Shown: positions 7,271 through 10,687 of the stretch, piece by piece
Position numbering within the stretch: the stretch's first letter is position 1
Layout of the letters: the number at the start of each line of letters is the position of its first letter
Sequence record: MT446423.1
Origin: Escherichia virus TH58
Strand: one strand, 5' to 3'
Length of the DNA stretch: 64,000 bases
The notes under the pieces: model-generated
The model's input: only the letters and a program-made list of their open reading frames with translations
The model's database searches: none
What the model was told of the DNA's origin: nothing
Made by a program: the position numbers and the translations under genes

Positions 7271-8218
7271 ATGTACAATATCAAATGCTTGTCCCAAGAA
7301 GAACAGTTAGAAGCTTACGGCCTGGTTGAATCAGGCAAATGGACTCGTAAAGAAATTGCTGATTACTTCGACATTTCAACAGATACTCTTCGTAAGATTG
7401 TTAAGAATTTTAAAGCTGAAGGCGTTGTCCCTGAAGCAAACGATGCCTCTTATGTAATCGAAGAAGTTCCAGAAAATAATGAACCTATTATTACAGGTCA
7501 CCGTCCAGAAATAGTATGGAACGCGTCATCTAAATTTATTTCAATCATTGAAGGACGCGTAGCATACAATGCGACCCCATCAAGTCATGCAAATTTTGAA
7601 GAAATTAAAGCTAATTTGGTCGCAGGAAACCTTAGTAAAGCTGTCGAACTTATTAACATCAAGAAAGCTATTAGTAAGTTTGTTGACGGTAATGTTGTTA
7701 TTGAAGGTGGTAGTTTATTTTATCAAGGTATAGAGATTCGTTCTGGTCTGGTTAATCGTATTATTGATTCTATGGAAAAAGGCGAAGACTTTAAATTCTA
7801 TCTACCGTTCCTTGAAAACCTGTTAGAAAACCCAAGCGAAAAAGCTGTACAACGTTTATTCGACTTCTTGGTTGCAAATGATATTGAAATCACTGAAGAT
7901 GGGCATTTCTACGCGTGGAAAGTAGTTCGTAAAGATTATTTAGATTGCTATAGCGGTACATTTGATAACTCACCAGGTAAAGTTGTTTCAATGCCTCGTA
8001 CTCGTGTTAACGATGATGATACACAAACCTGCTCCCGTGGTCTACATGTTTGCGCTAAATCGTATATTCGTTACTTTGGTTCTAGCTCAGATAAAGTTGT
8101 TAAGGTTAAAGTTCATCCACGTGATGTTGTGTCCATCCCAGTTGACTATGGCGATGCTAAGATGCGTACTTGTCGTTATGAAGTAATTTCAGACGTTACT
8201 GAATTATTTGCAGAATAA
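7271..8218 (+). CDS. rIIB: rIIB protein
   Basis: 315 aa; length and position match T4 rIIB (312 aa). Confidence 0.9.
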   Translation: MYNIKCLSQEEQLEAYGLVESGKWTRKEIADYFDISTDTLRKIVKNFKAEGVVPEANDASYVIEEVPENNEPIITGHRPEIVWNASSKFISIIEGRVAYNATPSSHANFEEIKANLVAGNLSKAVELINIKKAISKFVDGNVVIEGGSLFYQGIEIRSGLVNRIIDSMEKGEDFKFYLPFLENLLENPSEKAVQRLFDFLVANDIEITEDGHFYAWKVVRKDYLDCYSGTFDNSPGKVVSMPRTRVNDDDTQTCSRGLHVCAKSYIRYFGSSSDKVVKVKVHPRDVVSIPVDYGDAKMRTCRYEVISDVTELFAE

Positions 8219-8223
8219 TAATT

Positions 8224-8246
8224 GGGGACTTCGGTCCCCTTTTTTT
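8224..8246 (+). terminator. rho-independent terminator (GGGGACTTCGGTCCCC + T7)
   Basis: Perfect 6-bp GC stem with UUCG loop and TTTTTTT. Confidence 0.75.
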
Positions 8247-8260
8247 CTTTAGGGGTAATT

Positions 8261-8548
8261 ATGATTCATCCATTTGACGTATCAGAATCCAAAATTGCTA
8301 ATCTTCGTGGTCATCATAAGTGTAAATCAGTTTATTGTGCTAAATTGGTAAAACATCCTGGCGATGCACACTACGGTTGGTTAGAATGCGACGAAGTTGT
8401 TATTGAAATCCCACCGGTAGATGCAGAATATCTTGAAGAAGGTGACCGCATTTATTTTGGCGAACTACACATCAGAGGTATCTATGGTAAAGACGAACTT
8501 GGGACTGTTGAGACTGAAGAATCTTCCGACATTTATCCTGTCGAATGA
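8261..8548 (+). CDS. hypothetical protein (95 aa)
   Basis: Track ORF 8222-8548 begins inside the terminator hairpin; trimmed to ATG 8261 with AGGGG RBS. Confidence 0.5.
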   Translation: MIHPFDVSESKIANLRGHHKCKSVYCAKLVKHPGDAHYGWLECDEVVIEIPPVDAEYLEEGDRIYFGELHIRGIYGKDELGTVETEESSDIYPVE

Positions 8549-8564: not shown

Positions 8565-9041
8565 ATGAAGGTGAAGATTGCTGACACTGCTCGGTATTCC
8601 CTGAGCCAAAATCCTGACCAAAACAAAGAAGATGTAGTTCGACGTTGTAAGGTTGCGGTCTTTGCAGAGTATGTAGTAGCAAATTGGCTAGACGGATATG
8701 TTAATAAAGGTATTGAAGATGTAGAAGACCCGTACACGTATGCATGGGACGTGTTAGCCCATCCCAAATATTGTGGAATTCGTGTAGAAGTCAAGACACA
8801 CCAGATAGATTCTAAATGGATTTCTGTTACCACAGGATACAGTGGTGATTATCCGGGTGGCAACGGAATCAATATAGGGCCCTTCTTGAACCATCGAGTC
8901 GCAGATTGCATTATTATATTAGATGTCAAAGAAACCTCACCTGACGTCTTCTCTTATTCTATAAAGTTCGTGGGAGACCATGAAGACCTAAAGAAAATCG
9001 TCCGCAAGAGCAACTACAATGGGTGGTATCTTCAACTTTAA
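8565..9041 (+). CDS. hypothetical protein (158 aa), occupies the denB position but identity not established
   Basis: Track ORF 8421-9041 overlaps upstream gene; trimmed to ATG 8565. Confidence 0.5.
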   Translation: MKVKIADTARYSLSQNPDQNKEDVVRRCKVAVFAEYVVANWLDGYVNKGIEDVEDPYTYAWDVLAHPKYCGIRVEVKTHQIDSKWISVTTGYSGDYPGGNGINIGPFLNHRVADCIIILDVKETSPDVFSYSIKFVGDHEDLKKIVRKSNYNGWYLQL

Positions 9042-9053
9042 TTTCATAAAAGT

Positions 9054-9090
9054 GTTTACAACTAAGTAGGACTATGATATAGTAGTCCTA
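9054..9090 (+). promoter_or_regulatory. early-type promoter with -10 inside an inverted repeat
   Basis: GTTTAC 9054-9059, TGa-TATAGT 9075-9083, inverted repeat TAGGACTA 9067-9074 / TAGTCCTA 9083-9090. Confidence 0.5.
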
Positions 9091-9109
9091 TCTAAAAGAG
9101 GATAACATC

Positions 9110-9373
9110 ATGAAATTTAAATTTTTCTACGCAAAACATAAAGTAACAGGCGAATTTGTTTCAATGTACAACACTGCAGATGACGAAGGGATGATTTATA
9201 CCCATTTGGGACTATCTCATTGGGACTCAGACGTGCCTTATATGTCATCTGAAGCCGAAATAACTCGTCTGGTTAATGGACATATGAACGACCATTTTAG
9301 TGTTATTCTTTCTAAAGACCTTAAAGAGGTTATCAACAAAGGATATATGGAACTCGCGGAAGTTGAGATATGA
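9110..9373 (+). CDS. hypothetical protein (87 aa)
   Basis: ORF track; RBS AAGAGGA upstream. Confidence 0.55.
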   Translation: MKFKFFYAKHKVTGEFVSMYNTADDEGMIYTHLGLSHWDSDVPYMSSEAEITRLVNGHMNDHFSVILSKDLKEVINKGYMELAEVEI

Positions 9374-9456
9374 GCTCTAAAATGTGGATCGGAATATGGT
9401 TGCTTAGTATCCCTATGATTTGTATAATATTTTCAATTGCATTGAGGTACTTATGA
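9370..9456 (+). CDS. hydrophobic micro-ORF, 28 aa (MSSKMWIGIWLLSIPMICIIFSIALRYL)
   Basis: Not in ORF track; start overlaps upstream stop (ATGA); predicted single transmembrane helix. Confidence 0.3.
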   Translation: MSSKMWIGIWLLSIPMICIIFSIALRYL

Positions 9457-9563
9457 AAAATGCACTTCTTATTGTACTAAGAACAATTTGCGATACAGGT
9501 TTTTACATCGCATGTTCGTTCACCGGAACATGGTTGGCTTTAACATATTTTAATGTAATTTAA
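9453..9563 (+). CDS. hydrophobic micro-ORF, 36 aa (MKNALLIVLRTICDTGFYIACSFTGTWLALTYFNVI)
   Basis: Not in ORF track; start overlaps previous micro-ORF stop (ATGA). Confidence 0.3.
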   Translation: MKNALLIVLRTICDTGFYIACSFTGTWLALTYFNVI

Positions 9564-9565
9564 TT

Positions 9566-9603
9566 GTTTACATCAAGGTAGGATTATGGTATAGTAGTCC
9601 TAC
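9566..9603 (+). promoter_or_regulatory. early-type promoter with -10 inside an inverted repeat
   Basis: GTTTAC 9566-9571, TGg-TATAGT 9587-9595, inverted repeat GTAGGATTA 9578-9586 / TAGTCCTAC 9595-9603 (one G-T position). Confidence 0.5.
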
Positions 9604-9623
9604 TGAAACATGAGGAACACAAA

Positions 9624-9824
9624 ATGGCTAAGCTTTTTAAAGATGTTGAAATTGGTGAAAAATTTGTTCTGAATAATGGTCAGCAGCTTATTCGTGTAGC
9701 TTCTATCGCCGGACAAACTCATAACTGTATCGCCCCAACGTGTTGGACTCGATTCTTTATTGAAGATGATACTGAATGTTTAACTGTTGAAGAGCTTTTT
9801 GAACGTTCTGATATGGCCGAATAA
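9624..9824 (+). CDS. hypothetical protein (66 aa)
   Basis: ORF track; RBS GAGGAA upstream. Confidence 0.55.
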   Translation: MAKLFKDVEIGEKFVLNNGQQLIRVASIAGQTHNCIAPTCWTRFFIEDDTECLTVEELFERSDMAE

Positions 9825-9827
9825 AAT

Positions 9828-9862
9828 TGTACAAACTCTTGAGAGCAGAGTATAATGCTCTC
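9828..9862 (+). promoter_or_regulatory. sigma70/early-type promoter with TATAAT inside inverted repeat GAGAGCA / TGCTCTC
   Basis: TTGTAC 9828-9833, TATAAT 9851-9856, 7-bp inverted repeat 9841-9847 / 9856-9862. Confidence 0.45.
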
Positions 9863-9900
9863 ATGGATTACAAAAACATTAATCAATTGAGGAAATTAGC

Positions 9901-10347
9901 ATGTCCAAATATTTAACTCGTAAAGACCTTCTGGCAGTTGGCGGTGAAGTTGTTGCAGTAGTTCGTAATGGCGAATACGGTTCTGAAGTTTCTAAAGAGT
10001 TTCGTTCTCGTGAAGGTTTTTACTTCTTTGTTAAAGGTTCATCTGATTGGCGTCAAGTAGCAGCACGATTCTTTGTAGGACGTCAACGTTCTAAACAAGG
10101 GTTGGATGCAATTCTTTCTCACATTCGTCAAGGCCGTTCGCAACTAGCCCGTACCATGGGCACTAACAATATTGAATATGATGTAATCTTTGTTGCAGCT
10201 AAGAACATGAAACCACTGACTACTGGTTATGGTAAAGGACAATTGGCTCTAGCATTCACTCGCAATCATACATCAGAATATCAAACACTCACTGAAATGA
10301 ACCGTCTTCTGGCAGATAATTTCAAATTCATTCTGCAGAGTTACTAA
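9901..10347 (+). CDS. ndd: nucleoid disruption protein Ndd
   Basis: 148 aa; strong match to recalled T4 Ndd ([40 protein letters not shown]). Confidence 0.92.
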
Positions 10348-10400: not shown

Positions 10401-10547
10401 ATGGTAACATGGATTATTGCATTGCTGTGTTGGACGTTTTTATTCGTTAACACTTTAGTTACAGGCGAAACAACAGTATTTCAACAGGCGGTGTCACAAG
10501 GTACTTTAGCGGTCTTAGCTCTTTTTAACGTATTAAAAGGCGAGTAA
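10401..10547 (+). CDS. small membrane protein, 48 aa (ac-like position)
   Basis: Not in ORF track; own translation MVTWIIALLCWTFLFVNTLVTGETTVFQQAVSQGTLAVLALFNVLKGE; RBS GAGG upstream. Confidence 0.4.
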   Translation: MVTWIIALLCWTFLFVNTLVTGETTVFQQAVSQGTLAVLALFNVLKGE

Positions 10548-10687
10548 TGATTAAGAAAATCTTAGCAGGAGCCTTCGGGCTCTTGTTGTTGCTTATGGTT
10601 CTGTACTATGGTGTGATGTTTGGACTAATCCAAGTAGTGCTTTTCATTTCAGATGTTATAATGACTATTCGTTCATTAATATGGTGA
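10547..10687 (+). CDS. small membrane protein, 46 aa
   Basis: Not in ORF track; MIKKILAGAFGLLLLLMVLYYGVMFGLIQVVLFISDVIMTIRSLIW; start overlaps previous stop (TAATG). Confidence 0.35.
   Translation: MIKKILAGAFGLLLLLMVLYYGVMFGLIQVVLFISDVIMTIRSLIW

Follow-up and report, generated by a model that had tools for sequence, protein, structure and literature searches.

The closest described systems to this locus are the T4 genes ndd.6 (T4p275, UniProt P39248) and ndd.5 (T4p274, UniProt P39247), whose products are of 28 aa (MSSLWWCFVWLISIPVICLTFTFVMRLL) and 32 aa, respectively. The transcripts of both genes have been classed as early and time-resolved proteomics failed to pick up either protein (PMC9697503 Table S2), a non-detection which is uninformative because these are peptides of about 30 hydrophobic residues. 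Knock-down of ndd.5 and ndd.6 by dCas13d targeted to the ribosome-binding sites resulted in gene fitness values of −0.25 and −0.23, both classed as 'Not Fit' (PMC11879866 supplement). The T4 deletion sa-delta-9, extending from 52.1 through denB, is viable with approximately 50% of the wild-type yield, and it abolishes the stimulation of phospholipid (phosphatidylglycerol) synthesis that follows infection (PMC6071114). The T4 counterparts are dispensable in laboratory hosts (PMC6071114; PMC11879866 supplement).

A second described system is that of the promoter-early stem-loop (PeSL) elements of the hyperplastic regions of T4-like phages (Arbiol et al., 2010, PMC2839356; Comeau et al., 2014, PMC4122927). 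A third is formed by Ac, gp52.1, Ndd.2–Ndd.4, Imm and Sp, which like the two micro-ORFs described here (ORF1 and ORF2) are small, hydrophobic, early and non-essential and belong to the same region. Among these, Imm and Sp have demonstrated roles in superinfection exclusion. There is, however, no sequence relationship between any of these proteins and the micro-ORFs, which matched only phrog_8851 and phrog_18561; scans of the micro-ORFs against PHROG, Pfam and NCBIfam gave no relationship to an Imm or Sp family.

Gene order and control elements between denB and ndd

The window (the whole stretch of DNA that was analysed, 64,000 nt in length) was identified as belonging to the genus Mosigvirus, that is, to an RB69-like T-even phage. 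A query of 901 nt around the micro-ORFs matched 160 phage records with 90–99% identity, while the 194-nt micro-ORF stretch itself was found with at least 90% identity in 152 records, all of the Mosigvirus type. The genes of this early region are closely packed except for a single gap, which the micro-ORFs occupy on the coding strand; the opposite strand of 9370–9563 carries no ORF that reaches 20 aa. The features of the region are as follows:

7271–8218, + strand: rIIB
between rIIB and denB, + strand: ORF272c-like gene
ending at 9041, + strand: denB
9055–9093, + strand: early promoter with hairpin (PeSL-like); −35 TTTACA at 9055, 17-nt spacer, TG-extended −10 TATAGT ending at 9083
9110–9373, + strand: ORF270c-like first cistron, 87 aa, soluble; phrog_2390, E = 1e-42
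9370–9456, + strand: ORF1, 28 codons, MSSKMWIGIWLLSIPMICIIFSIALRYL; ATG 9370–9372, stop 9454–9456
9444–9447, + strand: Shine-Dalgarno GAGG of ORF2, within the final codons of ORF1 and 5 nt before ATG 9453
9453–9563, + strand: ORF2, 36 codons, MKNALLIVLRTICDTGFYIACSFTGTWLALTYFNVI; ATG 9453–9455, stop 9561–9563
9567–9604, + strand: early promoter with 11-bp hairpin (PeSL-like); TTTACA, 17 nt and TATAGT at 9567–9595, hairpin at 9577–9604
9624–9824, + strand: ndd.1, after the PeSL-like element at 9567–9604
9828–9867: third PeSL-like element, preceding ndd; fold z = −2.2
9901–10347, + strand: ndd
10401–10687, + strand: ac and 52.1, followed by gene 52

The preliminary description of two ATGA-coupled micro-ORFs of 28 and 36 aa proved to be exact. 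The 87-aa ORF ends in GAG ATA TGA and its stop codon is overlapped, as ATGA, by ATG 9370 of ORF1; in the same manner ATG 9453 of ORF2 overlaps the TGA of ORF1. Both overlaps are invariant in 21/21 aligned Mosigvirus sequences (the window and 20 relatives). The 87-aa ORF belongs to the family of RB69 ORF270c and Yersinia phage PST ORF268, is annotated in RB69 and its relatives, and has a pN/pS of 0.06. A PDB sequence search with this protein returned no meaningful match, and a scan of IMG/VR yielded three loci with the ORF270c query and 17 with the Ndd.6 alignment.

The element at 9055–9093, with which the operon opens, contains a hairpin at 9065–9093 with a core stem of 9067–9074/9083–9090 (fold z = −2.8) and can be aligned with the two elements downstream. 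That at 9567–9604 (fold z = −4.0) closes the three-gene unit and serves ndd.1 as its promoter. All three elements are near-identical (G/TTTACA, 17 nt, TATAGT or TATAAT; 10/12 promoter-scan matches) with hairpins of 8–11 bp, and correspond to the PeSL elements of T4-like hyperplastic regions. The ORF270c-like gene, ORF1 and ORF2 are a single three-gene unit between two of these PeSL-like elements. As in the described PeSL cassettes, early promoters embedded in hairpins bracket the unit and the gene content differs between genera; the stem sequences, on the other hand, are unlike those published for RB49/phi1, PST and nt-1.

The ribosome-binding sites of the three cistrons differ in predicted strength. 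The Shine-Dalgarno sequence of the ORF270c-like gene is strong (−5.8 kcal/mol) and that of ORF1 is weak (−3.6 kcal/mol, a value which about 30% of the ATGs in the window equal or better), as would be expected for a coupled start. For ORF2 the duplex reaches −6.9 kcal/mol, which is within the top ~9% of the 1383 ATGs of the window and equal to that of the ac gene. Judged by these predicted duplexes, ORF1 bears the signature of termination-reinitiation, and ORF2 that of coupling combined with direct ribosome loading. A longer, 47-aa version of ORF2 starting with TTG at 9420 was rejected, having no Shine-Dalgarno sequence (+0.6 kcal/mol) and overlapping ORF1.

Relationship of ORF1 to T4 ndd.6

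On the evidence of alignment, profile and position, ORF1 is the RB69-group orthologue of T4 ndd.6. The two 28-aa peptides align without gaps with 14/28 residues identical, and the BLOSUM score of this alignment, 84, was reached by none of 5000 shuffles (mean 16, sd 8). ORF1 matches the phrog_8851 profile over residues 1–28 of its 28 positions (E = 1.9e-10), the same profile being matched by T4 Ndd.6 at 1.6e-17. A tblastn search with ORF1 located it at the syntenic position of 757 phage records. These included approximately 600 Tequatrovirus records in which full-length gapless matches of about 50% identity fall under features annotated as ndd.6. Homologues of 29 aa, mostly unannotated, are present in Dhakavirus and Gelderlandvirus, so that four genera of the Tevenvirinae are represented altogether. 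Eleven positions are invariant over the four genera (M1, S2, S3, W6, W10, I14, P15, I17, C18, F21, and L28). An 'Imm' label lying under the tblastn match in ESCO10 was found to belong to a mislabelled ORF270c homologue.

The likeness to T4 Ndd.6 extends from the peptide (28 aa, with the MSS / W6 / W10 / IPxIC / F21 pattern) to its setting. ORF1 follows the ORF270c/PST-ORF268 homologue in the interval from denB to ndd. Like ndd.6 in T4, it is part of an early transcription unit and is found at the side of the ndd cluster that faces denB. The start of each of the two genes forms an ATGA overlap with an upstream ORF, and the final codons of each contain the Shine-Dalgarno sequence and ATG of the next cistron. 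They differ in that the sequence has diverged by 50% and in that the upstream partner in T4 has shrunk to 8 codons. Within Mosigvirus, ORF1 has a pN/pS of 0.16. Its Kyte-Doolittle maximum of 2.49 (19-residue window) is the highest among 201 small ORFs, these being the ATG ORFs of 25–45 aa in all six frames of the 64-kb window. Taking these observations together, we consider it very likely that ORF1 is a genuine functional gene.

Other searches added little. No family was matched in Pfam or NCBIfam. A tblastn search with the Gelderlandvirus Ndd.6 peptide gave zero matches, presumably owing to low-complexity masking, which makes this negative uninformative, and a protein search with ORF1 and ORF2 concatenated recovered three 36-aa ORF2 clusters and no ORF1, the 28-aa products probably being uncalled in the proteins searched.

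ORF2 and the slot downstream of ndd.6

The distribution of ORF2 is far narrower. A tblastn search found it in no records other than the 152 of Mosigvirus mentioned above, and a search of 1.84 billion representative proteins returned its own cluster alone. It matches phrog_18561 over positions 1–36 of 36 (E = 1.4e-29); this existing family, like the ndd.6 orthology of ORF1, had been missed in the preliminary description. AlphaFold2, run on the single ORF2 sequence, predicted one continuous helix over residues 2–35 with a mean pLDDT of 88.

From its position, ORF2 is an analogue of T4 Ndd.5. Both genes occupy the slot after ndd.6, with ATGA coupling and a GAGG 5 nt upstream of the start; both products are hydrophobic and of similar size (32 aa in T4 and 36 aa here), and an early promoter/stem-loop directly follows each gene. 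Mosigvirus and Tequatrovirus have 81% identity over the junction, TGAGGTnnTTATGAAA, which is conserved with the ndd.6/ndd.5 junction of T4. The two peptides differ in that they fall into different PHROG families (phrog_5011 for Ndd.5) and have no significant similarity. Neither is found outside its own genus, Ndd.5 occurring in 491 Tequatrovirus records as against 152 Mosigvirus records for ORF2, and ORF2 is less hydrophobic than Ndd.5, carrying R10 and D14. There is no gene in this slot in Dhakavirus and Gelderlandvirus, where ndd.6 ends without the ATG.

ORF2 is probably a functional gene, a view which we hold with only modest confidence. The frame is open in 149/152 Mosigvirus records. An identical peptide is encoded in 62/152 records, whereas the DNA is at least 99% identical in only 2/152. 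Pairwise pN/pS is 0.26 in frame against 1.1–1.3 in the other two frames. The substitutions are conservative (L/I, I/V, R/K, I/F, T/S, F/L), and one common indel is an in-frame deletion of 3 nt. These patterns weakly suggest purifying selection on the peptide.

They also speak against the alternative that ORF2 is not functional and that its frame is open by chance behind a ribosome-binding site and ATG which lie within the conserved 3′ end of ndd.6, so that the peptide would be effectively neutral, translated or not, while ORF1 would still be a real gene. A Shine-Dalgarno sequence that equals the nearby ac gene's in strength and the presence of an analogous coupled peptide gene in the same slot of T4 and its relatives likewise count against neutrality. 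In its favour, a count of substitution events in a sample deliberately enriched for protein variants gave 10–11 non-synonymous to 7 synonymous with 74% non-synonymous expected, which is not significant (P = 0.13–0.16). The frame is broken in 3/152 records: KAW3E185 and PECP20 have a common 1-nt deletion at the hypervariable site 9497 and differ in haplotype background, and F2 has an extra A within an A run. In OLB35 the 3′ end of ORF2 has been replaced, and codons 15–16 are hypervariable (TG, TV, AW). The lack of any relative beyond the genus and the vacant slot in two genera also fit a neutral ORF2, as does hydropathy: the Kyte-Doolittle maximum is 1.56, the peptide carries R10 and D14, and 37/201 small ORFs reach 1.6 or more, making the value ordinary for random small ORFs when compared within this AT-rich window. 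On balance we regard a neutral ORF2 as possible though unlikely.

With regard to what had been claimed before, the single transmembrane helix proposed for each peptide is solid for ORF1, which heads the 201 small ORFs, and only plausible for ORF2 with its lower maximum and two charged residues. The suggestion that the two ORFs are candidates rather than noise was borne out, by conservation over four genera for ORF1 and by the open frame in nearly all Mosigvirus records for ORF2, while the parts in host takeover or superinfection exclusion that were suggested alongside it are hypothetical. Conservation of the reading frames in related phages therefore holds for ORF1 across genera and for ORF2 inside Mosigvirus, outside of which ORF2 is absent.

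ORF2 could share its origin with T4 ndd.5, the two being not unrelated cassettes but one ancestral gene that diverged past recognition, partly through frameshifts. Both peptides begin with M-K at the same position behind the same junction and ATGA coupling. A gap of 6 nt brings their N-termini into an in-frame alignment (MK--NALLIV and MKILNSVLIA), and the frameshifted alleles described above exist in nature. The collinear DNA is also slightly more similar than dinucleotide shuffles (global p = 0.012, local p = 0.05), which is marginal, the local score of 12 barely exceeding the 8–11 obtained with unrelated small T4 genes. Against common ancestry, a protein shuffle test was not significant (p ~0.1), the PHROG families are separate, and tblastn in both directions gave no cross-genus match between ORF2 and Ndd.5 at E ≤ 10. 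Downstream of the junction the two genera share 53% of their nucleotides in an alignment with 28 gap columns, which is also the level of the flanking intergenic DNA; the ORF270c gene and ndd.6 align without gaps at 71% and 65% identity, respectively. A common ancestor for ORF2 and ndd.5 is possible, though we consider it the less likely case.

Less likely again, but of interest, is that the 3′ end of ndd.6 (TGAGGTnnTTATGAAA, with its built-in Shine-Dalgarno sequence and ATG) acts as a permanent launch pad for ribosomes, which would translate any DNA lying downstream. If this were true, ORF2 and ndd.5 would have arisen there independently, or by frameshifts of one ancestor, and the site would be a natural cradle of micro-protein birth. 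The 'exchange of ndd.4/.5' reported for PST was considered as evidence that a cassette had been replaced at the position of ORF2 and was rejected, since PST has intact, unannotated ndd.6 and ndd.5.

It is very improbable that 9457–9563 acts as a structured RNA (such as a small RNA or an element for processing or termination) and not as coding sequence. ORF2 does contain two short hairpin-like inverted repeats (9489–9512 and 9511–9532), and two polymorphisms in the first stem preserve G-U pairing. One polymorphism, however, breaks the second stem; the fold of 9440–9610 is no better than that of shuffles (z = −1.36), most of its energy coming from the downstream promoter hairpin; there is no match in Rfam, and the pattern of variation suits a reading frame better. 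With both Rfam and folding at background, this reading was rejected.

Persistence of coupling, proposed role and annotation

Coupling into ndd.6 is found well beyond the window. In Tequatrovirus, Mosigvirus and Dhakavirus the start of Ndd.6 overlaps the TGA of the ORF270c homologue, as ATGA in the first two genera and as ATGA or TTGA in Dhakavirus. In the latter the start codon varies between ATG and TTG from genome to genome with the overlap always retained, and TTG is the sole plausible start in those genomes which have ACG at the internal Met5 codon. Compared with other tequatroviruses, T4 itself has lost the upstream gene through an in-frame deletion between two AAATGAAA microhomologies. 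What remains is the native Shine-Dalgarno sequence, the ATG and an 8-codon ORF (MKIAEIEL*) ending in the ATGA overlap with ndd.6. The coupling is therefore unusually persistent, having survived the near-complete deletion of its upstream gene. Gelderlandvirus is the exception, as its ndd.6 is the only gene between two early promoters and carries an AAGAGG of its own. Fusion of ORF270c and ORF1 into one membrane-anchored protein by programmed frameshifting, for which the overlap of the frames at ATGA could be cited, is hardly credible and was rejected, since the junction has no slippery heptamer and ORF1 homologues stand alone both in Gelderlandvirus, with their own Shine-Dalgarno sequence, and in T4, behind only 8 codons.

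The micro-ORFs are probably cistrons 2 and 3 of an immediate-early operon lying between PeSL-like elements in the dispensable, highly variable denB–ndd region. Their products are most likely short, helical peptides of the inner membrane which are made by way of translational coupling and play an accessory part. The operon would be transcribed by host RNA polymerase right after infection from the sigma-70-type early promoter. Ribosomes ending the 87-aa cistron would re-initiate at ORF1, and ORF2 would be started either by ribosomes leaving ORF1 or by freshly loaded ones, giving roughly stoichiometric amounts of small peptides within the first minutes of infection. ORF1 is predicted to insert in the host inner membrane as a single-pass helix and ORF2 to form a long helix, either embedded in the membrane or associated with it. 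The peptides may then act on a component of the host envelope, in an accessory manner that depends on host or conditions and is not essential. The invariant mid-helix I-P-x-I-C and two Trp residues of ORF1 suggest a specific helix–helix contact in preference to generic perturbation of the membrane.

Neither micro-ORF is new, and what is described here is an annotation gap and not a discovery. Both are annotated as hypothetical in AlbertHofmann/Bas47 (MZ501047) as bas47_0098 and bas47_0097, the latter being ORF2. The RefSeq record of HX01 (NC_018855) also annotates both, with ORF2 as D299_gp200 and ORF1 as an 'outer membrane protein'. Most other records annotate ORF2 alone (39 of the 55 annotated records in the sampled list), and the RB69 reference (AY303349) annotates neither. 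The ndd.6 orthologue is omitted in many records of Mosigvirus, Dhakavirus and Gelderlandvirus and in some of Tequatrovirus (e.g., PST), probably because its 87 nt are below the common minimum length of gene callers. The 'outer membrane protein' label was inherited from the T4 annotation and goes back to an old localisation prediction. Lipoproteins carry a lipobox with the consensus [LVI][ASTVI][GAS]C at the end of the signal peptide. Inspection of the sequences showed no canonical lipobox in either peptide, the motifs around cysteine being I-P-M-I-C in ORF1 (I at −1) and R-T-I-C and I-A-C-S in ORF2, and the label is left without support from sequence.

The value of these observations is mainly for annotation, and current understanding of the region is unchanged. 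Ndd.6 is nevertheless one of the few micro-genes between denB and ndd to have been kept in four genera. This conservation, along with its persistent coupling, makes it a reasonable first candidate for the phenotypes of T4 deletions in the region such as sa-delta-9, although a link between Ndd.6 and the lipid phenotype of that deletion is only a lead. The most interesting aspect is an evolutionary one, namely a coupling that persists into ndd.6 and, at its 3′ end, a site of ribosome launch followed by micro-ORFs that look unrelated from one genus to another.

Early promoter elements and gene starts in the window

Three PeSL-like elements (the promoter-early stem-loop of T4-like phages) were identified in the window, each with an early promoter inside the hairpin and each standing 5' of one gene:

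9055-9093, PeSL-like element 5' of ORF270c
9567-9604, PeSL-like element 5' of ndd.1
9828-9867, PeSL-like element 5' of ndd

The elements of ORF270c and ndd.1 differ very little in sequence (GTAGGAnTATGnTATAGTAGTCCTA). Two genes of this region overlap in the ORF listing of the window when the longest ORFs are taken:

8222-8548, ORF272c-like gene, longest ORF, 108 aa
8421-9041, denB, longest ORF, 206 aa

As both genes are annotated in relatives as shorter and without overlap (288 nt and 477 nt, respectively), their true starts probably lie downstream of those of the longest ORFs.

Variation of ORF2 and Ndd.6 among related phages

Codons 15-16 of the Mosigvirus-only ORF2 (window 9495-9500) are hypervariable, encoding TG, TV or AW depending on the phage. 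A 1-nt deletion at 9497 is common to KAW3E185 and PECP20, and its occurrence on differing flanking haplotypes suggests that it arose repeatedly, was moved by recombination or is an artefact of sequencing. In OLB35 (L015), divergent sequence has taken the place of the last part of ORF2 and the first part of the promoter element that comes next (equivalent of window 9546-9580), giving an ORF2 of 35 aa with the C-terminus ...LALTSLIP*. Within the IMG/VR copy of phage vB_EcoM_G8 (L037, about 1270-1285), ndd.6 is expanded by 2 nt (GG) at its end, so that it lacks its stop codon and the ATGA junction and runs on, out of frame, into a read-through of 83 aa; the expansion is either genuine or an error of assembly. 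The record of phage F2 (L009, MN864145) is Tequatrovirus by classification, yet of Mosigvirus type in the ndd region, and its ndd (1233-1595) is evidently mis-annotated as "naphthalene 1,2-dioxygenase".

Homologs of Ndd.6 were also identified in Dhakavirus loci, and are annotated in none of the records inspected:

Position 1201 of L027, L028, L030, L033 and L038-L040, Ndd.6 homolog, 29 aa
Position 901 of L019 and L021-L023, Ndd.6 homolog, 29 aa

Their start codon is ATG or TTG, depending on the genome, and in every case overlaps the TGA of an upstream 88-aa ORF. The corresponding upstream ORF of ESCO10 is wrongly named "Imm immunity to superinfection membrane protein".

The ndd region of T4 and PST

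The ORF270c/PST-ORF268 homolog is present as a full 87-aa gene in other tequatroviruses (L032, L034-L036 and PST), with 8 codons left in T4:

3497-3525 of L004 (T4, NC_000866), minus strand, remnant ORF MKIAEIEL*, equivalent to window 9110-9373

The loss in T4 is an in-frame deletion with two AAATGAAA microhomologies at its ends; it left the gene's native Shine-Dalgarno site and its ATG in place, and the remnant still overlaps ndd.6 at ATGA. An "exchange" of T4 ndd.4/.5 for ORF268/269 has been published for Yersinia phage PST (PMC4122927, Fig. 6A). The PST genome does, however, carry both small genes, intact but unannotated:

1735-1916 of L041 (PST, KF208315), minus strand, ndd.6 and ndd.5 ORFs

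The reported exchange of ndd.4/.5 is therefore, at least in part, the combination of an annotation gap in PST and the deletion in T4.
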